From Armatimonadota bacterium (GTDB lineage: Bacteria; Sysuimicrobiota; Sysuimicrobiia; Sysuimicrobiales; Humicultoraceae): a stretch of DNA of 27,137 bases. The stretch's first letter is position 1; every line of letters starts with the position of its first letter. The stretch spans positions 1 through 27,137 of the forward strand of contig JBQTJP010000035.1 of assembly GCA_052386995.1 (NCBI GenBank). Direction: 5' to 3'. Shown in pieces: positions 601 to 25,731 of this stretch. The position numbers were made by a program, and so were the translations under genes. Under the pieces are notes generated by a model that worked only from the letters and a program-made list of their open reading frames with translations, made no database searches and was not told where the DNA came from.

Positions 601-1944
601 TCATGCGGGGGCAGTGTCCTGGGCGTCGCCGCAGCCGCAGGCCGGGGCAAAGTCGCAGAATCGCGACAGCCACCCGGGCTGGCAGCTGGGCAGCTCCGAT
701 GGCGGCGCGCCGGCTTCGAGGAGATCAAGGCGCCTCTGCATCTCCGCTTTGATGGCGTCCAGATCTCGAAACCAGATGTCGTACACCATGAACTTGTCAT
801 CGGGGAGAGCCGCGTAGTAGAGGATCAGCCTGCCGCGCTCCGACCCGGCCAGCGCGCATTCGAAGCCGAGCCGCTCGATGTAGTGCGGCGCATCGGCGAC
901 CAGGCGCTCGCGGCGGAACATCTCGCGGCGCTTGCTCACGCGCAGGATCGCCGGCACGTCACGGTGGAGCAGGATCGAGGCGCGCACCGATCCAAACGGC
1001 ACCCGTACGCGACGGCAGGCTCCCGGCGTGCCGTACCAGATGGCGTCCTCAAGGACGTCTGCAAACCCCCGGCGCTCCCTGGACGCCATCACGGACTCGG
1101 CGTCTTCTTCCGGACCCTCGCCCGGCTCGCCCTGCGCCGCCATCCGCGACGCGGCCTTCCGTGGGAAGACCAGGTCGTTCAGCAGAATTCGACGCCGATC
1201 GGCAGGCGGAAGCGCGCCCATGCGCTCCCGCATCAACGCCTCGAGCCCAGGGTTGCCTCGCACGACGACGGCGCCGCCCGACCCCATGCGCGCGAGCGTC
1301 ACCGCGGTCTCGCAGCCGCAGAAGCCTTCGTAGTCGCACCGTCCCCCGGTCCACTCGCAGCGCGGCAAGCCCGCGGGATCGCGGCGCTCCAACGCCTCGC
1401 GCAGGAGATCGCGGCGGCGCAGCATTTCCGCTGTGACGCGGTCCGGAGCCGTCACCTCGAGATCAAAAGCGCGCAGCATCGGCGTGCGGCCGTACTCGGC
1501 ACGCTGGTAGTAGACGAGCTGGCCGGCCGACCGGCCGACCATCACGCAGTACATGGCGATCTGCTCGACGTGGCTCGCGCGGGTGGCGATGATGTCCGAC
1601 GGGAGCGATCCCGTGGTCTTGAGCTCGATGGGCGCCTGCTCGAAGATGTCGATCTTGCCGACGATCCCCTCGTACTCCACCAGCTGTTCGACGAACTCCT
1701 CGGTGGACATCACGCGTTCGAACACGTCATGAAATCCCGTGCCGGCCATCATCGCCTGGAGGCGGCCCGGAGACGTCGCGATGTCGGGCCGCACGCGCTG
1801 GAAGTACGCCTGGCGCGGATTGATCAGATCGGTCACCGAGATCCGCCGGCGGCCGGATCGGCGGGTGATCGCGGCCACCACTTCGTCCTTGATGGACCGG
1901 TTGGCGTCGATACCCCCTGCGTAGGGACCACAAAATGCTGGCAT
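601..1944 (-). CDS. Cas4-like / PD-(D/E)XK nuclease family protein with two tandem domains
   Basis: Domain 1: ISVTDLINPRQAYF, GTGFH, GKID..ELKT, QIAMY, CEWTGGRCDYEGFCGC. Domain 2 repeats the layout (ILLNDLVFPRKA ... CQPGWLSRFCDFAPACGC) without the catalytic residues. Start uncertain (ATG 1944 or GTG 1968). Confidence 0.8.
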   Translation of the reverse strand: MPAFCGPYAGGIDANRSIKDEVVAAITRRSGRRRISVTDLINPRQAYFQRVRPDIATSPGRLQAMMAGTGFHDVFERVMSTEEFVEQLVEYEGIVGKIDIFEQAPIELKTTGSLPSDIIATRASHVEQIAMYCVMVGRSAGQLVYYQRAEYGRTPMLRAFDLEVTAPDRVTAEMLRRRDLLREALERRDPAGLPRCEWTGGRCDYEGFCGCETAVTLARMGSGGAVVVRGNPGLEALMRERMGALPPADRRRILLNDLVFPRKAASRMAAQGEPGEGPEEDAESVMASRERRGFADVLEDAIWYGTPGACRRVRVPFGSVRASILLHRDVPAILRVSKRREMFRRERLVADAPHYIERLGFECALAGSERGRLILYYAALPDDKFMVYDIWFRDLDAIKAEMQRRLDLLEAGAPPSELPSCQPGWLSRFCDFAPACGCGDAQDTAPA

Positions 1945-1997
1945 AATGGGAGATGGTGCGCCGGGCACCCCGGCGCGGGGCAGGCCTGTTTCCTCTC

Positions 1998-2063: not shown

Positions 2064-2084
2064 AGTGATCCGGAGGTGGATGCG

Positions 2085-2228
2085 ATGTTGGCATGGCTGG
2101 AAGCATGGCTCCACACGATCGTGTATGAGTACATCGACAATGAGAGCGGGCAGGATGTCATCGTCTGGCTGATCATTCTCCTGGTGATCTGGCTGATCGT
2201 CTCAGGACGGCGTCTGCTGGTCCAGTAA
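2085..2228 (+). CDS. 47-aa single-TM micropeptide A (prepilin/Flp-like leader)
   Basis: GGAGGTG SD at 2072-2078, ATG at 2085. MLAWLEAWLHTIVYEYIDNESGQDVIVWLIILLVIWLIVSGRRLLVQ. Paralogous to the next ORF. Confidence 0.8.
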   Translation: MLAWLEAWLHTIVYEYIDNESGQDVIVWLIILLVIWLIVSGRRLLVQ

Positions 2229-2299
2229 GCGCGCCGGATCTCCCGACACGCCATGATTTCTGTCTGCGTACTCCTGACATAGAAGGAGGTGAATCGGGC

Positions 2300-2443
2300 A
2301 TGCACATGCTCTTTGAGACCGCGCGTCGCGCGATCGTGCGGCACGTCGGCGACGAGGATGGTCAGGTGGATGCGCTGGTCATCGCCATCTTGATCTTCCT
2401 GTTCATCCTGATCGTCTCGGGCCGCCGCCTGTTCGTGCAGTAA
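2300..2443 (+). CDS. 47-aa single-TM micropeptide B (paralog of A)
   Basis: Not in the ORF track. AAGGAGGTGA SD at 2283-2292, ATG at 2300. MHMLFETARRAIVRHVGDEDGQVDALVIAILIFLFILIVSGRRLFVQ. Confidence 0.82.
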   Translation: MHMLFETARRAIVRHVGDEDGQVDALVIAILIFLFILIVSGRRLFVQ

Positions 2444-2489: not shown

Positions 2490-3617
2490 CTAGTCGATCC
2501 TCTTTTGGAATCGGCGGATGGCCAGGCCGAAGACGATGAGCGCCAGCACGACCAGTGGGACGATCTGGCGCCAGAGAAACGCAAAGCCCACGCCCTTGAT
2601 CAGGATGCCGCGCACGACATTGACGTAGTACGTCAACGGGAGCGCAAGGCCAACCCACTGGAGCACGACCGGCAGCGATTCGCGCGGAAAAAGGAATCCT
2701 GAGATCAAGATGCTCGGCAGCAGCGTGAGCTGCGACAGCTGCAGCGCCTGCTGCAAGTTCTTGGAGACCGTGGAGATCAGTGTCCCAATGCCGAGCGACG
2801 TGAAAAAGAATGCCAGGGTCATCGCGTAGAGCAACAGCAGGCTGCCCTTCACCGCCACCCCGAACCACACCCATGACAGCAGCAGAATGAACGTGAGGTT
2901 GATGTACCCCAGGCCCATGAGCGGGATGATTTTCCCCAGCATCAGCTCGATCGGTTGGATCGGGGTGACGACGAGCTGCTCCAGGGTTCCCATCTCACGC
3001 TCACGTACGATCACGGTGACGCTCAAGAAGGTCGTGGTGAACTGCATGATCACGGCCAGCACGCCCGGGACGATGAACACCTGGGCCTTCAGGTCGGGGT
3101 TGTACCATGCGCGAGTCCTGACATCCACGGGCACGGGTGGAGGACGCTGCCCGCGCCGGTGGATCATCTCGACGTTGAGATCCTGGGAGAGGCGGCTGCC
3201 GATCCCCGATGCCACCGACAGCACAACCTGCGCGCTGGTCGCATCGGAGGCATCGACGACCACCATCACCGCCGTCTGCCGCCCCGAGCGAAGCCGCGTC
3301 GCATAGTCGGGAGGGATGACGACGCCGATCTTCGCCTGGCCGCCGTCCAGTCGCTGCTCGATCTCTTTCATGTTGCGGGCGTTAGTGCGGACGGTAAAGT
3401 ATCGGGTGTTCTCGAATGCCCGGATCAGGGACCGGCTCTCGGCGGTGATGGATTGGTCCCAGACAATGGTCGGTTGGTGCAGCACCTCGTTGGACAGATA
3501 CCCGTAGAGAACGAGTTGAATGATCGGCAGGCTGATCATCGTCCCCAGCGTCCGGCGGTCCCTGAGGATCTGAATAATCTCCTTCCGCATGATGCTCCAC
3601 AGACGCTGCAGGCTCAT
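2490..3617 (-). CDS. ABC-2 type exporter permease (YbhS/YbhR-like)
   Basis: MRKEIIQILRDRRTL, large extracytoplasmic loop, WYNPDL, VREREMGTLEQLVVTP, LISGFLFP, multiple TM segments. Confidence 0.93.
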   Translation of the reverse strand: MSLQRLWSIMRKEIIQILRDRRTLGTMISLPIIQLVLYGYLSNEVLHQPTIVWDQSITAESRSLIRAFENTRYFTVRTNARNMKEIEQRLDGGQAKIGVVIPPDYATRLRSGRQTAVMVVVDASDATSAQVVLSVASGIGSRLSQDLNVEMIHRRGQRPPPVPVDVRTRAWYNPDLKAQVFIVPGVLAVIMQFTTTFLSVTVIVREREMGTLEQLVVTPIQPIELMLGKIIPLMGLGYINLTFILLLSWVWFGVAVKGSLLLLYAMTLAFFFTSLGIGTLISTVSKNLQQALQLSQLTLLPSILISGFLFPRESLPVVLQWVGLALPLTYYVNVVRGILIKGVGFAFLWRQIVPLVVLALIVFGLAIRRFQKRID

Positions 3618-4573
3618 CGCACCCCATCCCCGAGGCGTGGCGCGACAGTCTCCCGCGCCTCCACCAGCGCGACGAAGACATCTTCGAGCGACGGCTCGAT
3701 CGGCTCAACCGACTCCACCGTGAAGCCTTTCGCCACCAGGTCTGCGATCAACGCGGCGGCGACTTCGGCCGATTCCACGGTCGCGTGGATCGTGGCCCCG
3801 TGCAGGGCGGCATCCCGCACCTGGGGATGGTCTTCCACAGCGGCCAGCGCCTCGACGACGGGATGAGCACGGATCTCGAGCACCTGACCGGGCATATGCT
3901 CCCGCTTGATCGCCTTTGGCGTCCCCTGCGCGACGATCCGCCCTTCATAAATGAAGGCCAGCCCGTCACAGTGCTCGGCTTCGTCCATATAGTGCGTGGT
4001 CACCATCGTCGTCGTGCCTTCCGCGGAGAAGCGATCAATCAGATCCCAGAACTCGCGACGCGAGACGGGGTCCACCCCCGCGGTCGGCTCGTCGAGAAAG
4101 AGCATCTGCGGATGGTGCAGAATCGCACAGCCCAATGCCAGACGTTGGCGGAAGCCGCCGGACAGTTCGCGGGCCGGAGCGTGCTGGCGGTCTGCGAGCC
4201 CGGAACGCGCCAGCCATGCGTCGACCTGCATGTGGAACGCGGGGCCGGCCAGGCCGTAGACGCCCGCGTAGAACTCCAGATTGTCCCGCACCGTCAAGTC
4301 GGGATACAGGCTGAATCGCTGCGACATGTAGCCGATGCGGGCCTTGATCTCCTCGGGATGCCGGCGGATGTCGAAGCCCAGCACTTCGGCCGTGCCCTCT
4401 GTGGGGTCGAGGATCCCGCACAGCATCCGGATCGTGGTGGATTTGCCGGAGCCGTTGGGCCCCAGGAAGCCCCAGACTTCACCCGGCCTGATGTCGAACG
4501 ACACATGGTCCACGGCCACGAAATCGCCGAACTTGCGTGTGAGACCCTGGGCGCGGACGGAGAATTGCATCAT
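3614..4573 (-). CDS. ABC transporter ATP-binding protein (like the C-terminal half of YbhF)
   Basis: Walker A GPNGSGKST, signature LSGG, Walker B LFLDEPTAG, TTHYMDEA, C-terminal PSLEDVF. Confidence 0.95.
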   Translation of the reverse strand: MMQFSVRAQGLTRKFGDFVAVDHVSFDIRPGEVWGFLGPNGSGKSTTIRMLCGILDPTEGTAEVLGFDIRRHPEEIKARIGYMSQRFSLYPDLTVRDNLEFYAGVYGLAGPAFHMQVDAWLARSGLADRQHAPARELSGGFRQRLALGCAILHHPQMLFLDEPTAGVDPVSRREFWDLIDRFSAEGTTTMVTTHYMDEAEHCDGLAFIYEGRIVAQGTPKAIKREHMPGQVLEIRAHPVVEALAAVEDHPQVRDAALHGATIHATVESAEVAAALIADLVAKGFTVESVEPIEPSLEDVFVALVEARETVAPRLGDGVR

Positions 4574-5529
4574 GCGCGGCCCGTCTTTGAAACGAAGACG
4601 TCTTCCAGGGACGGCGGAACCCGACGGACGCTGGAGACCCGCACGCCACCCTGGGCGAGCAGCGTTTGTAGAGTCGGCCCCACATCGGCTGATGGCACGA
4701 GCACGTGCAGGCGGTCGCCGAAGACCTCCAGGCTGCGCACCATCGGATGCCCGCGGAGAACGCTCTTCGCGGCTTCCCGCGGCTCGGCGACGACCTCTAC
4801 AATCTCGCCCTCCATCTGCGATTTCAGCGAGGCCGGATCGCCCATCGCGATGATGCGGCCCCGATTCATCAGTCCGACGCGAGAGGCGCGCTCTGCCTCA
4901 TCCATGTACGGGGTGCTGACGAAGATGGCGATCCCCTGCCGGTTGAGACCATACAGGATCCTCCAGAACTGCCGGCGCGATACTGGATCGACACCCGTAC
5001 TCGGCTCGTCCAGGATGAGCAGTTCAGGATCGTGCATGAGCGTGCAGGCCAGTGCCAGCTTCTGCTTCATCCCGCCCGAGAGAACCTGTGCCAGGCGGCC
5101 GCCGAACGGCGACAGGCGGAAGTCGGCCAGGAGACGCTCGGCGCGCCGCGGGAATTCGCCCGGCGGCACGTGGTAGAGGTCGGCATAGAGGCGGAGGTTT
5201 TCCATCGCGGACAGATCGCCGTACAGGCTGAAGCGCTGGGGCATGTAGCCGATGCGGGGTTTGACCGCCTCCGGATCGGCGACGATGTCGCGGCCCGCGA
5301 CCATCGCCTCGCCTGAGTCGGGCGCGAGTGCACCGCAGAGCATCCGGATCAACGTCGTCTTGCCGGCGCCGTCGGGCCCGACGAGGGCGAAGATCTCTCC
5401 CTCACGGACCTCGAGGTCGAGACCGTCGACGGCCACCAGACCCTCGAAGCGCTTGGTCAGCCCTTTGCAACGGATCGCCGTGCCGTTGCGCGTGGCGGCC
5501 GTGACGGCGCCTGCGTGTGCGCTCCGCAT
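4570..5529 (-). CDS. ABC transporter ATP-binding protein (like the N-terminal half of YbhF)
   Basis: GPDGAGKTT, LSGGMKQK, LILDEPSTG, STPYMDEAE, PSLEDVF. Confidence 0.95.
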   Translation of the reverse strand: MRSAHAGAVTAATRNGTAIRCKGLTKRFEGLVAVDGLDLEVREGEIFALVGPDGAGKTTLIRMLCGALAPDSGEAMVAGRDIVADPEAVKPRIGYMPQRFSLYGDLSAMENLRLYADLYHVPPGEFPRRAERLLADFRLSPFGGRLAQVLSGGMKQKLALACTLMHDPELLILDEPSTGVDPVSRRQFWRILYGLNRQGIAIFVSTPYMDEAERASRVGLMNRGRIIAMGDPASLKSQMEGEIVEVVAEPREAAKSVLRGHPMVRSLEVFGDRLHVLVPSADVGPTLQTLLAQGGVRVSSVRRVPPSLEDVFVSKTGRA

Positions 5530-6899
5530 CAGGGCGAAGCGAGCGAGTTGACGAGGATCGCCGCGTCTGCCGGCAAGCCCGGCTTCAGGATCCCGTCGGA
5601 ATTCGGAAGCACCACCTTGACCCCGAAGACGAGTTTGACGCGCGCTTCTTTCGTCTGGACGTTGCCCGGCGTGAACTCTGCACGACTGCTGATCTCCCGC
5701 ACCGTGCCCCGGATCACGCGCTCGGGAAACGCGTCCACGCGCACCTCAGCGACCTGCCCGAGCTTCACCCGGGCCAGGTCGGTCTCGGCGACGAAGATGC
5801 GCAGGTACGGATCGCTCAGGTCGCCGATGGTCATGACCGGCGAGCCGGCCGTGACCAGATCGCCGATCTCGACGTTCCTGGAGAGCACCGTCCCGGCGAT
5901 CGGGGCGCGCAGGACGGCGTTGTTGCGTGAGGTCACGGCCAGATCGAGCGACGCCTGCGCCTGCGCCACCGCGGCTCGAGCGGCGTCGACTTCTCGCGCT
6001 CGCTGGGCCACGAGGCCGGCCGCCGACTGCGCGCCGCGCAACGCCGCCTCGGCCTGATCCACCTGGGCGCGCGAGGCCGCCACGTCGAGCCGACGGATGG
6101 GCACGGTGCGGCGGTTGGCGAGTGCCACGTTCAGCGCGGCCTCGGCGTGCTGCAACGCGGACCCGGCCGCCTCGTCCTGGGAGCGTGTCGCATCCCGTTG
6201 CGCGCGGACTGCGTCGCGTTGGGCGATCGCCGTCGCCAGCGCCGTGCGTGCGATGTCAACCTGCTGCGCGGCCACCGCGCCGTCGCGGAAGAGGGCTTCG
6301 GCACGCGCCGCATCGGCCTGCGCGCGGCTCAGGGCCGCCTCGGCCGCCTGGAGCGTGGCGTCGGCCGCCCGCAGGGCGGCTTGGGCCGCCGTTCTCTGGG
6401 CAGCGGCGGCCTTCACCTGCGCCCGCGCCTGCTCGATCTGGGCGTTCACGGACGCCTGCTGCAATTCGGCCGTCTCGCTCGCCTGCGGAACCCGCGTGCG
6501 GCTGGCGTCCACCGCGGCACGGGCCTGCTGCACCGACGCGGTCGCCTGCGCCTGCTGCACCGAGAGCGCAACCTCAGCCTGCGCCAACCGGGATTGCGCG
6601 ACGGCTACGCCCGCGCGCGCTTGCGCGACCTGGGCGTCTAATTCGTCATGATCGAGCTCGGCGATCACCTGGCCCGGCGTGACACGGTCGCCGTCGCGCA
6701 CGTTGAGCCTCACCACGCGCCCGGCCACCTTGGGCGCGATGTCGACCTGGGTTACCTCGATGGTGCCGGAGCCCTCGATCCGGTCCAGGTCACCGCGGCT
6801 GCGTGGCAGGACGACGTAGAGAGCGATCGCCGCGAGGATCGCGACCGGCACGAGCGCCCGGAGGCGCCTTGAATTGCGTCGTCCCTGCTTCGTGGCCAT
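5529..6899 (-). CDS. HlyD/YbhG-family periplasmic adaptor (membrane fusion protein)
   Basis: N-terminal TM, lipoyl-like halves (VRDGDRVTPGQ; LRAPIAGTV), long Ala/Gln coiled coil, AEFTPGNVQT, LKPGLPAD. GGAGG 8 nt before ATG 6899 (alternative start 6905). Confidence 0.93.
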   Translation of the reverse strand: MATKQGRRNSRRLRALVPVAILAAIALYVVLPRSRGDLDRIEGSGTIEVTQVDIAPKVAGRVVRLNVRDGDRVTPGQVIAELDHDELDAQVAQARAGVAVAQSRLAQAEVALSVQQAQATASVQQARAAVDASRTRVPQASETAELQQASVNAQIEQARAQVKAAAAQRTAAQAALRAADATLQAAEAALSRAQADAARAEALFRDGAVAAQQVDIARTALATAIAQRDAVRAQRDATRSQDEAAGSALQHAEAALNVALANRRTVPIRRLDVAASRAQVDQAEAALRGAQSAAGLVAQRAREVDAARAAVAQAQASLDLAVTSRNNAVLRAPIAGTVLSRNVEIGDLVTAGSPVMTIGDLSDPYLRIFVAETDLARVKLGQVAEVRVDAFPERVIRGTVREISSRAEFTPGNVQTKEARVKLVFGVKVVLPNSDGILKPGLPADAAILVNSLASP

Positions 6900-6941
6900 G
6901 ACCATTCCCTCCGCCCGAGTGCGACGCCGGTGGAGCGGCGT

Positions 6942-8345
6942 CTATTCGACCGGGCCACCCGCGGCGCGCTCGAGCTGCGCACGCGCCACGCTCACAGTGA
7001 ACAGCGCCTGGATGCGGTTCGCTTCTGCCTGGGAGAGCGACGCCTGCGCGGTGACCACTTCGAGGTTCGTCGAGACCCCGGCCGCAAATCGCACGTTTGC
7101 GATCCGCAGTCCTTCCTGAGCCTGCTCGACGGTCTTGTCGGCTGTGGCCAGTTCCTCCACGGCCGAGGCGACGTTGAGCAACGCGCGGCGCACATCCAAC
7201 TCGATACCCTGTCGCAGCTGCGCTTCGACGACACGCAACTGCTCCACCCGCACCTCGGCCTCGCGGATGCGCTCGGCGGTGACGCCTCCGTCGAACAGCG
7301 GCACCGTTGCCGACAGGGTGACGCTCCATCCCGCGGTTGCCGAGGGGCCGCCAGCGGCCCCGCCGGCCGTGTTCCCAAAACTGGGCCCGCCGGAGAGAAT
7401 CAGAGCCGGCCGGCCGTTGGCCCTTGCGATCTCGATCGCGGCGATGGCCGCGGCCACTCGGGCCTGGTGCTCCGCCATCTCGGGACGGCCCTCCAGCGCA
7501 CGGCGGACGAGCGCGACGACCTCCGTGCGCACCGGTATCACGGTCATCGTCTCACGCGGCGCGAGCGCGGTGTCGAGCGGCAGGGCCAGAACGGCGCTCA
7601 GGCCGTGCTGCGCCAGGGCTGCGGAATTGCGTGCCCGGATCAGGCTCTGGCGCGCACTGGCCTGGCTCACCTCGGCCTGCACCTCATCGAAGCGGGGGGA
7701 CACTCCGGCGGCGACGCGTGCGCGGGCCACCCGAAGATTCTCTTCGGCGGAGGCCAGCGTGCGTACCGCGACATCGATCCCGGCCTGCGCGAGGAGCAGT
7801 TGATAGTAGGCTAGCTTGACGTCCAGGACCACTTGCTGTTTCACGCGTTCCAGCGCGGCTTCCGCGCCCCTGAGATTCGCCTGCGCCAGCGCGATTGCGG
7901 ACTCGATCCGACCGCCGGTGAAGACCGGATACTCATAGTTCAGGGCCGCGCTGTAGAGGTTGGGCGTGGGCGGCGGCAGCGGCACCGTAATCGTGGTGGT
8001 AATCCCCGGAATGGTCCCAGGCGGAAAGACGATCGCGCCGCCGTCGCGGTCATTGATCCGCGTATAGGAGGCGGTCAACACGAGCTGTCCGGCCCGGACG
8101 TTTTCGGCCTGGGCGAGCTGCGAGCGCGCGACGGTGACCTCGAAAGCGGCCACCCGCAGGTTCAGGTTGTTCTGCGCGGCGACCGTCAGAGCTTCCGCGA
8201 GCGTGATGGGCCGCTGGGCGGGAGCCCCTTGAGGGGGGACCTGGGCTGCGGCGCCTGGCACCTGTGCCGCGAAGCCCGTGGCGAAGAGGACGCCGGCGCA
8301 GACACCGGCCACCATGCGCGCCACCGCGGTCGGTCGGTTCGTCAC
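6942..8345 (-). CDS. TolC-family outer membrane efflux protein
   Basis: Signal peptide and two OEP repeats (PVFTGG / PLFDGG; RVAAGVS / RFAAGVSTNLEV). Confidence 0.92.
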   Translation of the reverse strand: MTNRPTAVARMVAGVCAGVLFATGFAAQVPGAAAQVPPQGAPAQRPITLAEALTVAAQNNLNLRVAAFEVTVARSQLAQAENVRAGQLVLTASYTRINDRDGGAIVFPPGTIPGITTTITVPLPPPTPNLYSAALNYEYPVFTGGRIESAIALAQANLRGAEAALERVKQQVVLDVKLAYYQLLLAQAGIDVAVRTLASAEENLRVARARVAAGVSPRFDEVQAEVSQASARQSLIRARNSAALAQHGLSAVLALPLDTALAPRETMTVIPVRTEVVALVRRALEGRPEMAEHQARVAAAIAAIEIARANGRPALILSGGPSFGNTAGGAAGGPSATAGWSVTLSATVPLFDGGVTAERIREAEVRVEQLRVVEAQLRQGIELDVRRALLNVASAVEELATADKTVEQAQEGLRIANVRFAAGVSTNLEVVTAQASLSQAEANRIQALFTVSVARAQLERAAGGPVE

Positions 8346-9013
8346 TGGGATCTCCCCTTTGATGATGGTGCCGGTACCGAACGTTCGAGGACGCCGTACA
8401 CGAAGAGCCTGACCGTCTCGCGGATGATGGTCTCGTAGCTATGCGGCACCATCCGCCTGCCAAGCAACACCTCTTGCAGCAACACGAACATCAGCATGAC
8501 GCCGGGGAGCGCTCGGGCCACGACGGCCGGTTCCAGGTTGCGGCGGTAGAGCCCTGCGGCCATGCCCCGGCGAAGGTGGGCCTCCAGCACCTCTGCCGCT
8601 GCCAGCGGAATCAGCCGCGTGTACTCCTGGCGTGCCTTCCGGCTCAGGTACGGCAACGCCGAAAAGAAGACTTTGATGAAGCGCAGGTTGCCGGTGATGC
8701 GGGCCAGCATGGCGTGTCCCATCGTCATGAGGACCCGCTCGGCGTCCGCGGCCGTGGTCACGTCAGGCAGCCGGGCGGCGAGCTCGGCGAACACCGGCGC
8801 AACGACATAGCCGGGAATGTGAATCAAAAGGTCCTCTTTGCTGCGAAAGTAATTGTAGATCGTCCCTTCCGCGACGCGGGCGACACGGGCAATGTCCTCG
8901 ATGGTTGCGGTCGCGTAGCCTTTGCGCGCGAACACCCCGACCGCGGCCTCCAAGATCTGCCGCCGGCGCTCCTCGCTGAGCGCTTCCTTGCGTCGCGTCG
9001 TGAGGTGAGGCAT
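8342..9013 (-). CDS. TetR/AcrR family transcriptional regulator
   Basis: RRQILEAAVGVFARKGYATATIEDIARVARVAEGTIYNYFRSKEDL HTH. ATG at 9013 preferred because the longer ORF runs through the promoter and operator. Confidence 0.93.
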   Translation of the reverse strand: MPHLTTRRKEALSEERRRQILEAAVGVFARKGYATATIEDIARVARVAEGTIYNYFRSKEDLLIHIPGYVVAPVFAELAARLPDVTTAADAERVLMTMGHAMLARITGNLRFIKVFFSALPYLSRKARQEYTRLIPLAAAEVLEAHLRRGMAAGLYRRNLEPAVVARALPGVMLMFVLLQEVLLGRRMVPHSYETIIRETVRLFVYGVLERSVPAPSSKGRSQ

Positions 9014-9026
9014 GATCTCGCGCGTA

Positions 9027-9052
9027 TTATTGAGTGAGGGCTCACTCAATAA
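9027..9052. promoter_or_regulatory. Putative TetR operator (perfect 12-bp inverted repeat)
   Basis: TTATTGAGTGAG-GG-CTCACTCAATAA, AT-rich, between the predicted promoter and the tetR start. Confidence 0.8.
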
Positions 9053-9068
9053 CGTCGGGCGCTTTTTT

Positions 9069-9097
9069 ACCCTATCGCCTCGGGCCGATCCTGTCAA
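9069..9097 (-). promoter_or_regulatory. Candidate sigma70 promoter of the efflux operon
   Basis: TTGACA (9097-9092), 17-nt spacer, TAGGGT (9074-9069). Confidence 0.65.
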
Positions 9098-9128: not shown

Positions 9129-9737
9129 TCAGCGCCAGCGGGCCAGCCCGGGATCGTGGGCCAGCATCCAGGCCTCGTTGAAGCGCCAAGGCGACAGCGC
9201 CTCCGGCTCGAGGACGGCCGCCTGGCGCGTCCAACGCACAGGCTCGCGCGGATACGGCGCCCCGTTGGCCTGATGGCGCCACTTGACGTCCTGTATCAAG
9301 AACCACAGATAGAAGAGGTATGAGGAGGCGACGACCTCCGTCACTTCCATGACGCCGCCGTCGAACAGCCCAACCGGGGATTCGCCCCGGCTATCGCGTC
9401 GGTCCAACAGGAGCACGTAGGGATTGCCGGCGCCGTCGTTCCCGACTTCCACATATGATGGCAACCAGCCGATCGGTCCCCAGTAGGTCCGAGCCTGACG
9501 AGTCGCGACGACCAGATCGAGCCCGGACGGCACGGGGGGCACACCGAGGACAGGCTCGTTGACCACGAAGCCGCCATCGAAGGCGTCGAGAACGAGCCGC
9601 ATGGCTGGGGGAAACCTGACGTCGAGTTCAAACTCGGCAAGGGTGATGTCGCGGCCCGCCGCCGGCGCATTCAGCCGGACGACGCCCGCCGCGAAGAAGT
9701 CCATCTCTTTCCAGATGTCGTCGATTGTCACCGACAC
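9129..9737 (-). CDS. SMI1/KNR4 (SUKH) family protein
   Basis: PAAGRDITLAEFELDVRFPPAMRLVLDAFDGG, VGNDGAGNPYVL, VASSYLFYL match the SUKH pattern. Confidence 0.75.
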   Translation of the reverse strand: MSVTIDDIWKEMDFFAAGVVRLNAPAAGRDITLAEFELDVRFPPAMRLVLDAFDGGFVVNEPVLGVPPVPSGLDLVVATRQARTYWGPIGWLPSYVEVGNDGAGNPYVLLLDRRDSRGESPVGLFDGGVMEVTEVVASSYLFYLWFLIQDVKWRHQANGAPYPREPVRWTRQAAVLEPEALSPWRFNEAWMLAHDPGLARWR

Positions 9738-9742
9738 GCTCC

Positions 9743-10639
9743 CTACGCATCCCGCCCTCCCTCGTCGCGCGCCAGCACCAGCGTCGGACTCTGGACGACC
9801 GTGACCTCGCTGTCCGCGCCGGTCCCCCGATAAGTGACCAGCGCGACGTAACGATCGATCATCTTGTCGGCGGGATGTTCCGTCTCCACTAATACCCCAA
9901 TCCCCACTACTTCAGCCCGGAACTCCCGCATGAGGTCGTAGACCCCTCGCGCGGTCCCGCCGCCGCGGAGGAAGTCGTCAATGAACAGGACCCGCGCCCC
10001 GGCAGCAATCGCCCGCAGCGGCAGCGTCATCGACTGGACCAGCCGGGAAGAGCCCGACACATAGTTGACACTGACCGAGGGCCCTTCGATGACTCCCGCG
10101 CCGCGACGCACGGTCACGAGCGGGACATTGAACGCGCGTGCCGTCATCAACGCGACCGGAATGCCTTTGACCTCCATGGTCAGGACGACGTCCGGGCGGG
10201 CCTCGTGAAAAAGCGTTGCGAAGACTTCTCCGATCGCGGCGGCCGTCTGGGGAGTAGAGATCAGGTCGGTCGTGTGGAGGAACCCGCCGGCCAGCACCCG
10301 CCCCGGATCGCTGAGCTTCACGCGGATCTCGTCCACGAGCGCGCGGATCTGGCCGGGCGTGCGATGGGGGAGGTACCGCACGCCGCCGGCGGCGCCGGTG
10401 ACGGTCTCGACGCGGCCGAGGCCGAACCGTTCACTGGCGCGCCGCAGGAAGGCCAGATCTTCGCTGACCGTCGACTTCGCAGCGCCGAGCAGAGCGGTGA
10501 ACGCCGAGAGCGGGATCAAGCGGTGCGGCTCGGTCCACAGGCGGTGGGCAATGACGACCATGCGCTCGCCACGGCGGAGGCGCAGGCGGGGGCCGGCGTC
10601 CCCGGCCCCGGCGCGTTCCTCGGCGCGGACCCTGCGCAC
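9743..10639 (-). CDS. purR: Bacillus-type pur operon repressor (wHTH + PRTase domain)
   Basis: RRGERMV..PHRLIPL..AKSTVSEDL, ETVTGAAGGVRY, KGIP, EGPSVSVNYVSGSS, PRPP loop FIDDFLRGGGT. Start uncertain. Confidence 0.93.
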   Translation of the reverse strand: MRRVRAEERAGAGDAGPRLRLRRGERMVVIAHRLWTEPHRLIPLSAFTALLGAAKSTVSEDLAFLRRASERFGLGRVETVTGAAGGVRYLPHRTPGQIRALVDEIRVKLSDPGRVLAGGFLHTTDLISTPQTAAAIGEVFATLFHEARPDVVLTMEVKGIPVALMTARAFNVPLVTVRRGAGVIEGPSVSVNYVSGSSRLVQSMTLPLRAIAAGARVLFIDDFLRGGGTARGVYDLMREFRAEVVGIGVLVETEHPADKMIDRYVALVTYRGTGADSEVTVVQSPTLVLARDEGGRDA

Positions 10640-10640
10640 G

Positions 10641-11405
10641 CTAGGCGCCCGGTCCGCTGTGCGGCTCCAGCGCCGCTCGGAGGATTTTCATGTTCTCCGG
10701 CCGCTCGGCGTCGATGTCGAGCGCGAGTTCAGGAGATTCGACGATCACGGCCTTGGCGCGGATACCCGTCACCTCGTGCACCCGCGCCTCCGCGTCGGCG
10801 ATCGACAGGGTGCCGGCAATAAGCCTGGTCGCGAGCGACCATCCGAAGAGCTGTGCCAGCAGCCACGGCTTCTTGCGTCCGGCCATGATCCGCTCGACGA
10901 GCGGCCTGACTTTCTCGATGATTCCCGGATCGAACAGCAGGACGCTCCCGCCGGTGAAGACGCCATCGGTCACACGCACGTACGTCTTGCGCGCGCCCGG
11001 GTACCGACGCTCGACCGCCGCCTCCGGCACGATCGCGTAATAGAGGCCCGCATCGCCGGAACACAATCCCAGAAAAGCCTCAATGGCCTCGGCTGTGATG
11101 AGCGGTAAATCCGAGGCGACCGCCAGCACGCGCGGCTCGCCCGAGAGGCGTGCGACAGCGGCCCCGATATTGTCGACGAGCGTGCCCTGCTCTGGGACGA
11201 TCTCGAAGGACGGATCGAGCAACGAGCCCAGCGGCCGCTCGGGTCCCACGACCACAATGCGACCCATCGAGCGCACGCCGCGCAGGGCGTCGGTGACCCG
11301 GACGACGAGCGGACGGCCGCCGAGGACGAGGAACGCCTTGCTGGGAAGATCGGGCGCCAGGTGCGGCTCGGGGCCGCCCCCGGCCAGCACGATCGCGGCC
11401 GGCAC
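10641..11405 (-). CDS. Nucleotidyltransferase (MobA-like NTP transferase) family protein
   Basis: AIVLAGG, SKAFLVLGGRPL, SDLPL, LDID. Start codon overlaps the ispE stop. Confidence 0.8.
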   Translation of the reverse strand: MPAAIVLAGGGPEPHLAPDLPSKAFLVLGGRPLVVRVTDALRGVRSMGRIVVVGPERPLGSLLDPSFEIVPEQGTLVDNIGAAVARLSGEPRVLAVASDLPLITAEAIEAFLGLCSGDAGLYYAIVPEAAVERRYPGARKTYVRVTDGVFTGGSVLLFDPGIIEKVRPLVERIMAGRKKPWLLAQLFGWSLATRLIAGTLSIADAEARVHEVTGIRAKAVIVESPELALDIDAERPENMKILRAALEPHSGPGA

Positions 11406-12271
11406 TACCGCTGCTCCGCGAACGTTCGCGTGACCAGAACGTCGAGATCTGTGATCGTGCCGAGGTCGTCCGCGACGCGCCGTGCGGCCGCTTCGTTTGC
11501 CATTAACCCGAACACGGTGGGACCGGTGCCGGTCATCGCAGCCCCGTAGGCCTCGCCTCCGAGGATGCGGGCCTTGACCTCGGCAACGACCGGATGCCGT
11601 CCGGCGATGAACTCCTCGAAGACGTTGCCGAGCAGCCGGCCAACCGCGGGCACGTCCCGGCGGCGCACCGCCTCCACGAGGCTAGGCACGTCGGGCCGCC
11701 GGGTGATGTCCAGGGGCTGGAGATGACGGTAGGCCCACTCGGTCAGCACCGACACGCGCGGCCGCGCGAGCACGACCCACGTCGTAGGCAGGGGGGGCAG
11801 TGGCTGTACCCGCTCGCCGCGGCCCCGGGCCACGGCCGACCCTCCGTCGAGGAAAAACGGCACGTCCGAACCCAGACGGGCCGCCAGCGCGTGCAGCTCG
11901 CGCCCGTCGAGCCGGAGCTTCCACATCTGCGCAAGGCCCATCAGCGTGATCGCGGCGTCAGCGCTTCCACCGCCCAGGCCCGCGGCGACGGGGATGCGCT
12001 TCTTGACCTCGATATCCACGGGGCGCGGCACGCTGTACTGCTCGCGCAGCAGCGTGGCCGCCCGATAGACGAGATTCGCCGCGCCCGAGGGAAGCGCTTC
12101 CCCATCGGTGGTGACGTTGATCCCCTCGCCGGCCTCACGCAGGGTGATCAGATCGTGCAGCGCAATGGTGTGGAGAACGGTCTCGACTTCATGGTACCCG
12201 TCCTCGCGTTTGTCCAGGACGTTGAGGGCAAGATTGACCTTCGCGTACGCGTTGAGATGCAGCTCTTTCAC
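11405..12271 (-). CDS. ispE: 4-diphosphocytidyl-2-C-methyl-D-erythritol kinase
   Basis: AYAKVNLAL, DGYHEVET, KRIPVAAGLGGGSADAA, LGSDVPFF, GRGE. GGAGG SD before GTG 12271. Confidence 0.95.
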   Translation of the reverse strand: MKELHLNAYAKVNLALNVLDKREDGYHEVETVLHTIALHDLITLREAGEGINVTTDGEALPSGAANLVYRAATLLREQYSVPRPVDIEVKKRIPVAAGLGGGSADAAITLMGLAQMWKLRLDGRELHALAARLGSDVPFFLDGGSAVARGRGERVQPLPPLPTTWVVLARPRVSVLTEWAYRHLQPLDITRRPDVPSLVEAVRRRDVPAVGRLLGNVFEEFIAGRHPVVAEVKARILGGEAYGAAMTGTGPTVFGLMANEAAARRVADDLGTITDLDVLVTRTFAEQR

Positions 12272-12383
12272 GAACGCCTCCAAGGGCTTGCGTGCGGCAG
12301 TGTACAGGTTAGGTGCGGCCGCATCGAAGTCCTCTCGCCGGCCCGCGTTGCGCCGCGTGACCGCTTGCGGGTAAGATATTGAC

Positions 12384-13718
12384 GTGAACGACCGCGAAAC
12401 GCACGGCATGTCGCCATCGGACGCCGGGGCCCAGCCGGTGCCCGAACATGCTCCGTCGGCCCCCCCGACCGCTTCCCTACCCCCGCCGGTCTATCCTCGA
12501 CGCCGGTGGTGGCTGGTGGTGGCCTGGGCGATCCCCGTGGTGGTGCTGTTCGCCGGCGGCCTGGCCCTCGGGCTCTATCTGTACACGCTGAGCCAGATCA
12601 CCGTGGGCACGGGCGAGGCGACGGCGCGCCGGCAGCGGAGCGAGGCGTTCGGCTGGCCCCTGCGGCTCGCCGACCGGGTCAACATTCTCATCATCGGCGT
12701 CGATGTCACGCTCGACAACCGGCGGCGGGTCCTCAACGTCGCCCGAGCCGACAGCCTGCTGCTCGTCTCCTTCGACCCCGAGCGCCGCCGGATCTCCGCC
12801 GTGTCCATCCCGCGTGACACGCGCGTCCAGATCCCCGGCTACGGCGAGACCAAGGTCAACGCCTCGTACGCTTACGGCGGCCCGCGCCTCACGATCAAGA
12901 CCGTCGAAAAGCTGCTCGGCGTGACCGTCGATCACTACGTCAAACTGGGAGCCGAGTCGTTTTCGCACATCATCGACGCCGTCGGCGGGATCGAGATCGA
13001 CGTCGAGAAGGACATGAAGTACACCGACACCTGGGCGGGATTCAGCGTCGACCTCAAGAAAGGCCGCCAGCATCTCGATGGCCAGCAGGCGACCGGGTAC
13101 ATCCGGTTCAGACACGACGCCACCGGGGACATCGGCCGCGTGGAGCGTCAGCATAAGGTGATGATGACGCTGGTCAGGCAGCTGCGCCAGCCGTCGACCA
13201 TCCTGGCCGGACCCCGGCTGCTGCGGGTCTTCGCCGAGAACACCGAGACCACGCTCACGCCGGCCGAGCTGGCCACGCTCGGCCTCTTCGCGCTGCGGAC
13301 GAAAGAGGCCCCTCTGCGGATCGAGACGCTGCCCGGGGGGTTTGCGCCGGAGTATTGGGATCCGGATACGCCAAGAGTGCGTGCGCTGGTCGCCGACATA
13401 ATCTACGGCGTATCGCGGGACGAGCTCACGAAGACCGTCGTCGACGTTCAGAATGCCAGCGGCTCACCGGCCCTCGGCCGGCGCATCGCCGAGCGGATGA
13501 CCGCCCTCGGTTTCCGTACGGTGAAGGTCAGGACAGCGGCTCCAACGGACCGGACGGTGATCATCGATCGCAGCGCGAACCCGCGCACGGCCCGCATGGT
13601 CGCCGCGGCTCTGGGCAAGGCGAAGATCCGCCGCGAGCCGGGGTCCGTGGAATCCATCACGGTCGTCGTGGGTCGCGACGCGGCCCGCCCACCGGCCACG
13701 TCCCGCAACGGCTTGTAG
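12384..13718 (+). CDS. LCP (LytR-CpsA-Psr) family protein with LytR C-terminal domain
   Basis: Single TM, NILIIGVD, RADS, SIPRDT, KVNASY, YIRFRHD, GDIGRVERQ, C-terminal VQNASG..VVVGRD. Start 12384 or 12408. Confidence 0.93.
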   Translation: MNDRETHGMSPSDAGAQPVPEHAPSAPPTASLPPPVYPRRRWWLVVAWAIPVVVLFAGGLALGLYLYTLSQITVGTGEATARRQRSEAFGWPLRLADRVNILIIGVDVTLDNRRRVLNVARADSLLLVSFDPERRRISAVSIPRDTRVQIPGYGETKVNASYAYGGPRLTIKTVEKLLGVTVDHYVKLGAESFSHIIDAVGGIEIDVEKDMKYTDTWAGFSVDLKKGRQHLDGQQATGYIRFRHDATGDIGRVERQHKVMMTLVRQLRQPSTILAGPRLLRVFAENTETTLTPAELATLGLFALRTKEAPLRIETLPGGFAPEYWDPDTPRVRALVADIIYGVSRDELTKTVVDVQNASGSPALGRRIAERMTALGFRTVKVRTAAPTDRTVIIDRSANPRTARMVAAALGKAKIRREPGSVESITVVVGRDAARPPATSRNGL

Positions 13719-17331: not shown

Positions 17332-17751
17332 CTACGGCGTCGTGGTCTGGACCAGCTCGATGAGCATGCCGTGCGTGTCTTTGGGATGCAAAAAGATGAT
17401 GCGGCTGTTGTGCGCGCCCGCGCGGGGCACCTCACTGATGGGAGTGAAGCCGGAGCGGCGCGCGTGCGCCAGAGCCTCGGCGATGTCCTCGACGGCAAAC
17501 GCGATGTGGTGGATGGCTTCACCGCGGCGCGCGAGGTGGCGTGCGATCGGGCCCTGCGATCCCAGCGGCTCGAGAAGCTCAATCCGCACGCCGCCCAGCG
17601 TGACAAACGCCACGGTCACGCCCTCACTCGGCAGCGCCTCCGGCGCACCGACACTCAGGCCCAGGTTCTCGTAGAGCCGGCTCGCCTCGGCGATACTCCG
17701 CACCGCCACGCCGATATGATCGATTCGGGTCGGACGCCAGCGCGAGGCCAT
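17332..17751 (-). CDS. mce: Methylmalonyl-CoA epimerase
   Basis: IDHIGVAV, IELLEP, IHHIAFAV, FLHPKDTHGMLIELVQ, plus gene context. Confidence 0.93.
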   Translation of the reverse strand: MASRWRPTRIDHIGVAVRSIAEASRLYENLGLSVGAPEALPSEGVTVAFVTLGGVRIELLEPLGSQGPIARHLARRGEAIHHIAFAVEDIAEALAHARRSGFTPISEVPRAGAHNSRIIFLHPKDTHGMLIELVQTTTP

Positions 17752-18696
17752 TCACATGTGAGCGAGCAGCCGGTCGGCGGCGGTATGCGGGTCGAGGTCA
17801 CCGGCCGCCACGCGCTCGACGAGCGCATCGAGTGAGGCTGCGTGGGCCCCGGCCAACACCCGCGCGCGCAGCCGCTCCTCGGCGATGCGGATGATCTCGC
17901 GCCGCCACCGCGAACGCCGCCGTGCGTCGTGGCCCCCGGTCGTTTCTTGGTGGCGCCGGTGGGCGTCGATGGCCGCCATCATCTCCACCACTCCCTGCCC
18001 GGATGTCGCCACCGTGGTGAGCACGGGCGGGTGCCACGCGCCGGCGGGGAGCGCGGCCAGCGTCATCTTCACATCCGTGACCGTCCGATCGACCTCGGGA
18101 CGGTCGGCCTTGTTGACGACGAACACATCGGCGATCTCCATCACGCCGGCCTTGAGCGTCTGGATGCCATCCCCCATGCCCGGCATGGTGACGACCACGA
18201 CCGTGTCGGACGCAGTGATCACATCGACTTCGGCCTGACCCGTGCCCACCGTCTCGATGAGGATGGTCGTGGCTCCCCAGGCGTCAAGCACTGCGCTGGC
18301 GTCCGCGGTCGCCGGCGCAAGGCCGCCGAGACTGCCGCGCGTGGCCATCGAGCGCACGAACACCTCTGGATCGGTGCTGTGATCCTGCATCCGGATGCGA
18401 TCGCCGAGCAGGGCGCCCCCGGTGAATGGGCTCGTGGGATCGACCGCGATCACGCCGACGCGGGCCCCGCGTTCTCGCAGCAGCCGGATCGCCGCATTGA
18501 CCAACGTGCTCTTCCCCGAGCCCGGCGGTCCGGTGATCCCAACGATGTGCGCGCGGCCGGTGTGGCGAAAGAGGGCGCGCAGGGCACCCGACGCCGCCGC
18601 GCTGTCATTCTCGGCGAGAGAGATCAGGCGCGCCGCGGCCTGCGGCGTGCCGGCGACAACGGCGGAGACGAGTTGCTCGACGAGGTCTGACAGCAT
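17752..18696 (-). CDS. meaB: Methylmalonyl-CoA mutase-associated GTPase
   Basis: GITGPPGSGKST, AVDPTSPFTGGALLGDRIRM, ETVGTGQ, NKAD. Confidence 0.95.
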   Translation of the reverse strand: MLSDLVEQLVSAVVAGTPQAAARLISLAENDSAAASGALRALFRHTGRAHIVGITGPPGSGKSTLVNAAIRLLRERGARVGVIAVDPTSPFTGGALLGDRIRMQDHSTDPEVFVRSMATRGSLGGLAPATADASAVLDAWGATTILIETVGTGQAEVDVITASDTVVVVTMPGMGDGIQTLKAGVMEIADVFVVNKADRPEVDRTVTDVKMTLAALPAGAWHPPVLTTVATSGQGVVEMMAAIDAHRRHQETTGGHDARRRSRWRREIIRIAEERLRARVLAGAHAASLDALVERVAAGDLDPHTAADRLLAHM

Positions 18697-18704
18697 CCAA
18701 CGAG

Positions 18705-19148
18705 CTACCGAAAGTACTCCAGCCTATCGATCGTCTTCACCATGACCGGGCCGTCCGTCAGCGCATCGGTGACGCGTAGGAGCGCGCCGTTGGTCATCGG
18801 CCTGGGGAGCGCATCCGGAGGAAAGTACCGCGCCTCCAGGATCTCTTTCCCGTCGGGCGCGAGCGCTCCGCCGACTACCCGGCAGCGAAATGCAAAGACG
18901 ATCTGCTCATTGTCGCGGCGCCAGTACACGCCGTACAGTGCTTCGATCTCGACGTCGAGCCCGGTCTCTTCGCGCGCTTCGCGTACGGCGGCCTCCGCGG
19001 GTGACTCGCCAGGATCGATACCGCCGCCCGGCGTCGTCCACTGGCGCTGATCATACGACAGGCGCACGAGCAGCACGTCACCGACCTCGTTGAAGATCGC
19101 CGCGCTCGCCGCGAGCGGCCGGGGAAGCTGCGCATTGGAAACGGCCAT
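18705..19148 (-). CDS. NUDIX hydrolase
   Basis: Nudix box PGGGIDPGESPAEAAVREAREETG. ATG 19148 overlaps the mutase stop (TGATG). Confidence 0.9.
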   Translation of the reverse strand: MAVSNAQLPRPLAASAAIFNEVGDVLLVRLSYDQRQWTTPGGGIDPGESPAEAAVREAREETGLDVEIEALYGVYWRRDNEQIVFAFRCRVVGGALAPDGKEILEARYFPPDALPRPMTNGALLRVTDALTDGPVMVKTIDRLEYFR

Positions 19149-23868: not shown

Positions 23869-23899
23869 CGCGTTGGCCTCCACCGAGGGACGTGTGTCG

Positions 23900-25452: not shown

Positions 25453-25731
25453 CTAGGACGGCGCCCCGGACTCCGGCGGCAGTGGGCCGTACGGACGGAT
25501 GGCGATGATCCCGTGTTTGAAGAGAAGTTCCTGCGTTCCGTTGTTTTCGATCAGGAGGCTGTAGGTGCCGAAATCCTTGACGATCGCCGACGGGATCTCG
25601 TACCCATCGCGGCAGCGGATGTACACGGGCGTGGCAGCGCCGACGAGTCTGCGGTAGAAGGCATCTTCGAGCGACGGCCGCGGCGGGGCCTTCGTCCCTG
25701 TCGGCCCGTCCGTTCGGATCTCTTCGCGCAT
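25453..25731 (-). CDS. Possible in-frame internal product: stand-alone 92-aa Hfq-like protein
   Basis: Internal GGAGGTG (25746-25740) lies 5 nt before GTG 25734 and 8 nt before ATG 25731, just ahead of the Hfq domain. Confidence 0.55.

Follow-up and report, generated by a model that had tools for sequence, protein, structure and literature searches.

Two short open reading frames (ORFs), here called ORF A and ORF B, lie in tandem on the forward strand of a 27,137-nucleotide (nt) stretch of DNA from an Armatimonadota bacterium (contig JBQTJP010000035.1 of assembly GCA_052386995.1; the whole stretch is referred to below as the window). Each would encode a peptide of 47 amino acids (aa), and the strong Shine-Dalgarno (SD) sequence GGAGGTG stands upstream of both (Table 1). 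A first inspection made from the letters alone (the sequence-only reading) had described such a tandem, sharing E6, the dipeptide I12-V13, a [D/N]-E-x-G-Q junction, a hydrophobic stretch and the ending LIVSGRRL[L/F]VQ-stop. We indeed found every one of these features in both peptides, the hydrophobic stretch consisting of 17 uncharged residues. The five synonymous codon differences listed for the shared tail (A/B: TCA/TCG, GGA/GGC, CGG/CGC, CGT/CGC and GTC/GTG) are also correct, and the sole replacement there is CTG/TTC (L/F). Overall, A and B are identical at 16/36 aligned residues (BLASTP, E 6e-9), and their tails form a 58-nt direct DNA repeat of 71% identity. In the ORF listing ORF A can also be read as part of a 91-aa frame starting at 1953. 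We rejected that start, which is without an SD and overlaps the divergent gene, and took 2085 as the start because an SD precedes it and the orthologues share it.

Table 1. Coordinates of ORF A, ORF B, their sequence features and the flanking genes (positions in the window).
Feature	Position	Strand	Remarks
ORF A, 47 aa, A-type, first gene of pair	2085..2228 incl. stop	+	MLAWLEAW..DNESGQD..VIVWLIILLVIWLIV..SGRRLLVQ
ORF B, 47 aa, B-type, second gene of pair	2300..2443 incl. stop	+	MHMLFETARRAIVRHVGDEDGQVDALVIAILIFLFILIVSGRRLFVQ
SD of ORF A, GGAGGTG	2072..2078	+	6 nt upstream of ATG
SD of ORF B, GGAGGTG	2285..2291	+	8 nt upstream of ATG, inside A-B spacer
A-B spacer, 71 nt	2229..2299	.	contains ORF B SD
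ORF A leader, residues 1-22: predicted amphipathic helix 2-17, loop D18-N-E-S-G22	2085..2150	+	AlphaFold2 model; hhalign to Flp prepilins
ORF A D24 and 17-residue uncharged predicted transmembrane stretch (residues 25-41)	2154..2207	+	
ORF A C-terminal tail GRRLLVQ, family signature	2205..2225	+	tail is the best-conserved region, mean pairwise identity 0.68
ORF B junction D18-E-D-G21-Q22	2351..2365	+	
ORF B tail GRRLFVQ	2420..2440	+	
Convergent efflux operon (context)	2490..9097	-	TetR-TolC-HlyD-2xATPase-ABC-2 permease
TetR	8342-9097	-	efflux operon
TolC	6942-8345	-	efflux operon
HlyD-type adaptor	5529-6905	-	efflux operon
DrrA-type ABC ATPases	4570-5529, 3614-4573	-	efflux operon
ABC-2 permease	2490-3617	-	efflux operon
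Divergent 455-aa gene (context)	601..1968	-	weak PD-(D/E)XK nuclease match PF12705, E 0.02

Around the pair, consensus scans of positions 1850-2650 found no promoter-like or terminator-like site, and an Rfam search of the A/B region returned no match. A palindrome, AAACAC-CGC-GTGTTT, lies at 2026-2040, 45 nt upstream of ORF A; it is probably no operator, because one of its arms is altered (T2036C) in related strains.

At E<=1 no Pfam or NCBIfam model matches ORF A or ORF B. The window's genome holds a third paralogue, a 48-aa peptide of what we call the operon type (G000:C223:3869-4012), which is also preceded by GGAGGTG. A profile of the three paralogues retrieved 19 clusters from a collection of 5.8 billion proteins, all of 46-49 aa and every one unnamed or 'hypothetical'. 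Among 1.84 billion proteins the same profile found 48 representatives at E<=0.001, 45 of them 40-56 aa long; the other three, long repeat proteins in which the match is confined to a short E-H-G-Q stretch, were set aside. Across the phylum, matches to the family hidden Markov model (HMM) were obtained in 53/94 genomes, which leaves 52 carriers after removal of one Flp cross-hit. By taxonomic family (f1 to f6), the matches fall in 21/33 genomes of f1 in addition to the window's genome, in 17/22 of f3, 12/12 of f5, 1/1 of f6 and 1/23 of f4; the single f4 match, like a weak extra match in genome G005, is a true flp gene. These phylum tallies include two genomes flagged as unpublished (G025 and G017), whose sequences enter no alignment. 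By these sequence searches, the family does not extend beyond the window's phylum and the uncultured relatives of that phylum. The homologues that the sequence-only reading had suggested looking for thus exist, and the family is real. Its members are 40-56 aa long and consist of a leader, an E-x-G junction, an acidic residue, a helix of ~17 residues and a C-terminal [G/N/H]-R-[R/K]-[VIL]-x-[VI]-Q. ORF A and ORF B show all of these and match the family profile at E 2e-22 and 6e-21, respectively.

Several lines of evidence indicate that these are real genes under selection. An SD-like motif stands at -18 to -4 upstream of 44/50 family genes from 39 genomes, with GGAGG in 37/50; the six genes without such an SD-like motif have doubtful start calls. 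The pooled within-genus ratio of nonsynonymous to synonymous polymorphism (pN/pS) is 0.23, from 28 non-independent pairs; within-genus pairs were used since between-genus values (0.57-0.70) are saturated. Related strains, sampled as contigs from three further public runs (95-99% alike), show 11 substitutions in ORFs A and B together, 7 of them synonymous. Replacements number four, two in A (E15K and S21R) and two in B (T7S and H15R), each of them in the leader or junction, and three indels all lie within the 71-nt spacer, none within the ORFs. The selection on the peptides that had been read from the codons of the shared tail is thereby borne out. It is very likely that ORF A and ORF B are real, translated membrane micropeptides. 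Annotation pipelines miss the family, labelling its genes 'hypothetical' or leaving them uncalled.

We next consider the anatomy of the peptides, for which conservation was counted in an alignment of 44 family members (A3), numbered from the presumed cleavage point at the junction. Gly(-1) is the best-conserved residue (43/44), accompanied by Glu(-3) in 37/44 and Gln(+1) in 38/44; an acidic residue follows at aligned +3 (+2 where the column is gapped) in 42/44, and position +5 is hydrophobic (I, L, F or V) in all 44. Mean pairwise identity is 0.28 in the leader, 0.63 in the junction, 0.44 in the helix and highest in the tail. The median uncharged stretch is 17 residues, after which only 7 residues remain, GRR(V/L)xVQ. 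An AlphaFold2 model based on the family alignment consists of helix 2-17, loop 18-23 and helix 24-46, with a mean predicted local distance difference test (pLDDT) score of 71.6.

This layout resembles that of Flp prepilins, the subunits of Tad pili. A search of the phylum for Flp_Fap and TadE turned up ordinary Flp genes of 58-70 aa, of which seven (65-70 aa, from genomes G001, G005, G014, G022 and G057) were aligned (A4). Their Tad context was verified at two loci, in the order DUF5658-flp-TadE-RcpC/CpaB-TadG-like-TadZ in G001 and in the same order minus the TadG-like match in G057. As a positive control, the seven genes matched Class_IIIsignal in 4/7 cases, DUF4244 in 4/7 and Flp1_like in 3/7. 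Their sequence pattern is M..(A/R)AWLxxKLxRDERG–QGTVEYVLLILGVV.. (leader ..AWLxxKLxRDERG–QGTVEY.., the dash marking the cleavage site), and the leader of the operon-type micropeptide, MLIWLHTWLRLAVGKTLRDERGQAEL.., has the wording of these Flp leaders. Both families possess an amphipathic leader of ~20 residues, which is the least conserved part of each, then [DN]-E-x-G, Gln and a hydrophobic helix. The D/N-E-x-G–Q junction that the sequence-only reading had called prepilin-like is therefore shared, together with the leader, by Tad-locus Flp proteins of the same phylum. By profile comparison, the ORF A leader up to Gly(-1) is a Flp-prepilin-like segment. The micropeptides are unlike Flp in having an acidic residue at +2/+3 instead of E(+5)Y(+6), in that GRR(V/L)xVQ replaces the C-terminal ~25-30 residues of the pilin, and in that their genes lie outside tad loci, mostly in genomes without tad markers. 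A second likeness is to the TadE/TadF pseudopilins and the N-termini of TadG-like proteins (PF07811, PF13400), in which ..RDERGQA.. is likewise followed by a hydrophobic helix; those proteins, however, are ~150 to several hundred residues long with large extracytoplasmic domains, whereas in the micropeptides the module stands alone.

Does this likeness reflect common descent? The family could instead be an unrelated small bitopic membrane protein that has converged on this layout, in which E-x-G-Q serves as a helix-breaking hinge at the membrane surface, without an evolutionary or enzymatic tie to prepilins. What speaks for convergence is that the likeness to Flp extends over no more than 33 columns, of which half are hydrophobic, and escapes every Pfam model, just as no Pfam or NCBIfam model matches the peptides themselves. 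In the ESM Atlas the best match was an unnamed cluster (0.85), followed by Flp1_like (0.82), DUF6133 (0.79) and Class_IIIsignal (0.78), all below the guide value of 0.9 and to be taken as leads only, and ORF A was without any named match. The displaced acidic residue, an orthologue that lacks the Gly (in genome G092) and four genomes of genus g29 (three 94-96% complete, one 83%) in which no A24 peptidase match accompanies a strongly constrained peptide point the same way. Against convergence, an hhalign comparison of the 44 micropeptides with the seven A4 Flp sequences gave a probability of 80.6% (E 1.3e-5) over leader, junction and helix start, and this match depends on residue order: its score of 29.1 was reached by 0/200 profiles with shuffled Flp columns (9.5 +/- 2.1, maximum 19.2), by 0/200 with shuffled micropeptide columns (maximum 17.7) and not by the reversed Flp profile (10.2). 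A second Flp group (10 genes of the Flp_Fap type), which the first group matches at 95.7%, gave a weaker match to the micropeptides that also exceeded its null (score 21.9, probability 31.8%, against a maximum of 15.9 from 150 shuffles, one of them ending in an error). Furthermore, the cross-matches run both ways. The family HMM also matched real flp genes in G005 and G057, and a tblastn search with the operon-type peptide found four loci, two of them true members and two the N-termini of TadG-like proteins. The latter two come from metagenome-assembled genomes (MAGs) of two other phyla, one from Thermoleophilia (L063, 70% over 20 residues) and one from Granulicella (L064), and lie within reading frames of 541 and 647 codons. 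The same R-D-E-R-G-Q wording moreover occurs in micropeptides and Flp within one phylum. Since the profile match exceeds all shuffles and the tblastn matches to TadG-like N-termini are independent of it, common ancestry with the Tad/Flp N-terminal module is probably the right explanation of these sequence similarities. A probability of 80.6%, rather than above 95%, gives helix-hinge-helix convergence some weight, and we regard it as unlikely.

The Tad loci of these relatives (L115:3336-4091 in G057 and L116:4719-5762 in G001) have features of their own. A gene for a DUF5658 membrane protein lies directly upstream of flp, and G057 has three tandem flp genes. The flp genes of both loci are missed by the Pfam model Flp_Fap and reach only Class_IIIsignal, DUF4244 and Flp1_like.

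The sequence-only reading had gone further and suggested minimal pilin-like peptides or filament subunits, that is, Flp-type pilins cleaved after Gly to products of ~25 residues that would form a Tad or type IV filament. Besides the leader and junction, with the conserved Gly, Glu and Gln that they have in common with real Flp prepilins of the phylum and a leader that is the least conserved region, this idea can draw on the peptidase. An A24 (prepilin) peptidase is present in 45/52 carriers, and the window's genome has one, together with two double-domain PilC-type platform genes. Gly(-1) after a short leader and before a hydrophobic helix, as in Flp, is found in 43/44 micropeptides. The remaining traits of a pilin are missing. 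In the description that we draw on (PMC10934763), the Flp motif reads GXXXXEY, with Glu at +5 and Tyr at +6; 0/44 micropeptides have E(+5), whose absence from ORFs A and B had already been remarked, and 0/44 have Y(+6). None of the 44 matches PF04964 Flp_Fap, PF16982 Flp1_like, PF04021 Class_IIIsignal or PF14029 DUF4244 at E<=1, nor PF13400 or PF07811 at the same threshold. The predicted product would consist of no more than a hydrophobic helix and 7 residues, compared with ~25-30 residues past the helix in the phylum's Flp, which leaves it no surface from which to build a filament.

The genomic data agree with this. Scanning the neighbours at 42 loci turned up no tad or pil gene. TadE was detected in 8/52 carriers (0/22 genomes in f3 and 1/12 in f5) and 15/42 non-carriers, and Flp_Fap in 1/52 and 12/42, respectively. 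The A24 peptidase is not associated with the micropeptide, because it occurs in 35/42 non-carriers as well as in most carriers. Of the co-occurrence with pilus genes that the sequence-only reading had named as a check, the presence of a peptidase holds, without association, and that of TadE does not. In the window's genome, which is 93% complete, none of Flp, TadE, TadG-like or RcpC gave a match. Absence calls in MAGs may be gaps, as G092 illustrates, which has Flp and TadE but no detected A24 gene; A24 was also not detected in the four g29 genomes mentioned above (83-96% complete), G012 and G050. Where a Tad locus does exist (G001, G002, G005, G014 and G022), it uses ordinary 65-70-aa flp genes and the micropeptides are encoded elsewhere. 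As carriers mostly lack tad markers, the micropeptide appears to be retained where no Tad pilus can be made. Taken together, these results make a minimal pilin very unlikely, and the micropeptides very likely act outside any pilus.

Other classes of small protein fit no better. The type IVa/IVb model PF07963 (N_methyl) matches no member at E<=1; residue +1 is Gln in 38/44 and never Phe or Met, and E(+5) is absent. The junction x-G-Q does not resemble a double-glycine leader, position -2 being R, S, D, E or Q in 43/44. A type I toxin or holin is a misfit with the housekeeping operon position and the broad vertical conservation described here. A leader peptide or upstream ORF regulating the DegT gene (see below) was rejected in view of the conservation of the peptide sequence itself and the survival of the gene after relocation.

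To place the family in its genomic context, we analysed 42 loci from 39/52 carrier genomes (13 carriers, including the two unpublished ones, were left out), calling neighbours with local HMMs built from Pfam-verified neighbours. In 29/42 loci (11 in f1, 9 in f3, 8 in f5 and 1 in f6) the order is SRPBCC, one or more peptide genes, DegT aminotransferase and GFO/IDH/MocA oxidoreductase. Between the SRPBCC stop and the peptide start lies a median of 11.5 nt (n=28, range -17 to 130), and between the peptide and DegT about 129 nt; the genes further upstream vary (TrmI, helix-turn-helix regulators, HflX or SelB). The SRPBCC protein is similar to TTHA0849 (PDB 2D4R, E 4.1e-45), and its model shows a helix-grip fold (pLDDT 91.4). 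Among NCBIfam names, UDP-GlcNAc 3-dehydrogenase fits the GFO gene best but falls below the cut-off, and DegT is a generic sugar aminotransferase. The remaining 13/42 loci, termed solo, have varied neighbours, among which no recurring partner was found.

The gene cluster SRPBCC-DegT-GFO is of interest in itself (G000:C223, L002:165-3143 and 28 related loci). Often the gene for the tRNA m1A methyltransferase TrmI precedes it, and it occurs in five families of the phylum, whether or not the micropeptide gene is present. The cluster suggests that the TTHA0849-like START protein has a role in amino-sugar metabolism.

Pairs of A and B were found in family f1 only. In three genomes of genus g5 the pair stands inside the operon, as SRPBCC-A-B-DegT, and a fourth contig of this genus breaks off at that point; outside the operon the pair stands in six genomes from four genera (g1, which is the window's genus, g2, g6 and g10). 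The window's genome itself has three members, the operon-type gene behind SRPBCC on C223 and the relocated A-B pair described here. The first gene is always of the A type (GQ[DE]xxxWL..LW..) and the second always of the B type (GQx[DE]AxVxAL..ILIL). In a maximum-likelihood tree of 48 columns, in which most other forks are unresolved, first and second genes are split by a branch with support 95/83 that was present in 100% of bootstrap trees. The constant gene order and the split in the tree imply one old duplication whose order was kept after relocation. Because the pair keeps the order A then B wherever it has moved, the two peptides may work together.

In the window the pair converges on the complete TetR-TolC-HlyD-ABC operon on the minus strand, whose HlyD-type adaptor has PRK03598 as its best NCBIfam match and whose layout resembles that of E. 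coli ybiH-ybhGFSR. The sequence-only reading had drawn attention to this convergence and called any functional link speculative, rightly in both respects. A and B could be cargo of the exporter, secreted as a two-peptide bacteriocin or a signal, or else its partners, as small subunits that regulate the pump. Besides the window, where the pair abuts the exporter, genome G016, of a different genus, has the pair next to an orthologous exporter (permease 71% identical), where it lies co-directionally downstream of HlyD-ATPase-ATPase-permease-TolC and a further frame. The adjacency recurs in this one other genus only, in another orientation, and no such exporter adjoins the other solo pairs (G001, G002, G003 and G022) or the 29 operon-type loci. 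The window pair is convergent with the exporter and is not co-transcribed with it; the peptides have no double-glycine leader, and the ABC proteins are of the ABC-2/DrrA type without a peptidase domain. A transmembrane stretch with a conserved C-terminal tail, moreover, suits resident membrane proteins. A role as exporter cargo or partner is thus highly improbable, and the adjacency in the window and G016 could be inherited synteny within one family. As for the weakest alternative, that A and B are chance ORFs or a non-coding element, their shortness, the label 'hypothetical' at most in every source and the failure to find RNA evidence are outweighed by a frame, length, SD and C-terminal motif conserved over four families of the phylum, by the low pN/pS, by indels confined to the spacer and by the empty Rfam search, so that conservation effectively refutes it.

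We propose, with slightly more than even confidence, that ORF A and ORF B encode a pilin-derived pair of membrane micropeptides that function outside a pilus, which is the best reading of these data. According to this proposal, the family would share ancestry with the Tad/Flp N-terminal module of amphipathic leader, E-x-G-Q, acidic residue and hydrophobic helix. It would have lost the pilin traits, namely the GXXXXEY motif, the surface-forming C-terminal half and the tad genes, and would have gained the short basic tail GRR(V/L)xVQ-COOH. The peptides may insert in the cytoplasmic membrane and remain there as small single-pass subunits, A and B functioning jointly as a heteromer. The ancestral single gene would have been translated directly after a cytoplasmic START-like protein (SRPBCC, TTHA0849-type), in an operon that also held a sugar-nucleotide 3-dehydrogenase-like gene and a DegT aminotransferase. 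In view of this operon position, the most likely ancestral role would be that of a membrane partner or anchor of the SRPBCC module.

It is also conceivable, at somewhat less than an even chance, that the PilD-type A24 peptidase of the genome still cuts off the leader at G–Q. In favour of this predicted cleavage, the junction, and chiefly Gly(-1), is strongly conserved while the leader drifts, as in real Flp. A family topology that is ambiguous by charge, and N-out for A and B, speaks against it, as do the four g29 genomes, G012, G050 and G092, in which A24 was not detected. In its fullest form the scenario would have an A24-cleaved peptide of ~25 residues ending in GRRVxVQ take part, with the START protein and the amino-sugar enzymes, in the biogenesis of an envelope glycolipid or glycan, the A/B pair being a specialised heteromer; we think it quite unlikely that all of this holds together.

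A number of observations weigh against the proposal of a pilin-derived membrane pair or against parts of it. Conservation of the Gly, on which the prepilin-like interpretation depends, holds for the 44 aligned members with a single exception and fails in the syntenic orthologue of G092 and in representative P0065 of the wider set, in which the Gln is also replaced in several representatives. When charges on the two flanks of the helix were counted, the N flank was more positive than the C flank in 11 of the 44 members, equal in 14 and less positive in 19; for ORF A and ORF B the N-flank charges are -4 and -2 and the C-flank charge is +1. This pattern suggests, for the window's peptides, an N-out orientation, opposite to that of a prepilin. 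No RNA run covering positions 1900-2600 was found. The heteromer is a matter of even chances, gene order being what points to it. It is doubtful that SRPBCC was the ancestral partner, for which gene order is again the argument. The window's own pair is not adjacent to SRPBCC. Furthermore, SRPBCC-DegT-GFO stands without a peptide gene in 5/5 f1 genomes checked that have the peptide elsewhere and in 5/5 genomes of f4, which lacks the peptide, so the link is not obligatory. According to a review, TTHA0849 is a START protein of unassigned function with a very small cavity (PMC13525633), which makes a lipid-carrier role of the START partner uncertain.

Known systems offer partial parallels. The same review lists a mycobacterial CoxG-type START protein, Rv0369c, with a C-terminal transmembrane domain (PMC13525633). 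Such membrane-tethered proteins combine a START fold with one transmembrane helix, as may be the case here; unlike in Rv0369c, where the transmembrane domain is in cis, the helix would here be supplied in trans by the peptide gene, the association being suggested by gene order.

AcrZ, KdpF and CydX are small bitopic accessory subunits of bacterial membrane complexes. The micropeptides are like them in size, in having one transmembrane helix, in that the gene lies in or near the operon of a presumed partner, and in their narrow taxonomic range; they differ in bearing no sequence relation to them, in their prepilin-like leader and in their strictly conserved C-terminal tail.

A full-text literature search found no description of truncated Flp-like micropeptides or of an SRPBCC-micropeptide gene pair. 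What appears to be new, judging from the sequences, is that the class III signal and helix module of Tad/Flp proteins forms a micropeptide by itself, ending in a new motif and found in a non-pilus context. The family seems to keep only this module, which defines type IV filament subunits, and the module is under purifying selection in four families of a little-known uncultured phylum that mostly lacks the matching pilus machinery. If the proposal is correct, the family would be a clear example of a micropeptide gene that arose when a larger structural protein, a pilin, was truncated. The peptides would also be candidate non-pilin substrates for prepilin peptidases, and they would open a first genetic route to the function of a widespread bacterial START protein. 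Should the leader indeed still be cleaved by the A24 peptidase, bacteria would here be using class III signal processing for something other than a filament.

Several other genes of the window merit a record. The 455-aa gene upstream of the pair has cysteine clusters near both ends and no NCBIfam name, and it is not conserved as a neighbour of the pair. Five well-formed genes, as judged by their pattern of G+C at third codon positions (GC3), have no NCBIfam match at E<=1e-10: 9129-9737 (-), 10641-11405 (-), 21744-22934 (+), 23356-23883 (-) and 25453-26745 (-). At 9743-12409 (-), a Bacillus-type PurR (TIGR01743, above the cut-off), an unnamed 254-aa gene and IspE stand in a row. The PurR-IspE arrangement is known from Firmicutes; here the row sits in a diderm-looking genome with TolC. 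A methylmalonyl-CoA cluster at 17332-21469 (-) comprises an epimerase, a MeaB GTPase, a Nudix hydrolase and a 773-aa mutase, whose catalytic domain begins only at about residue 245 and whose N-terminal extension is without a match. In two related genomes (G009 and G014), a B12-binding mutase subunit is encoded just upstream of TrmI-SRPBCC-peptide.

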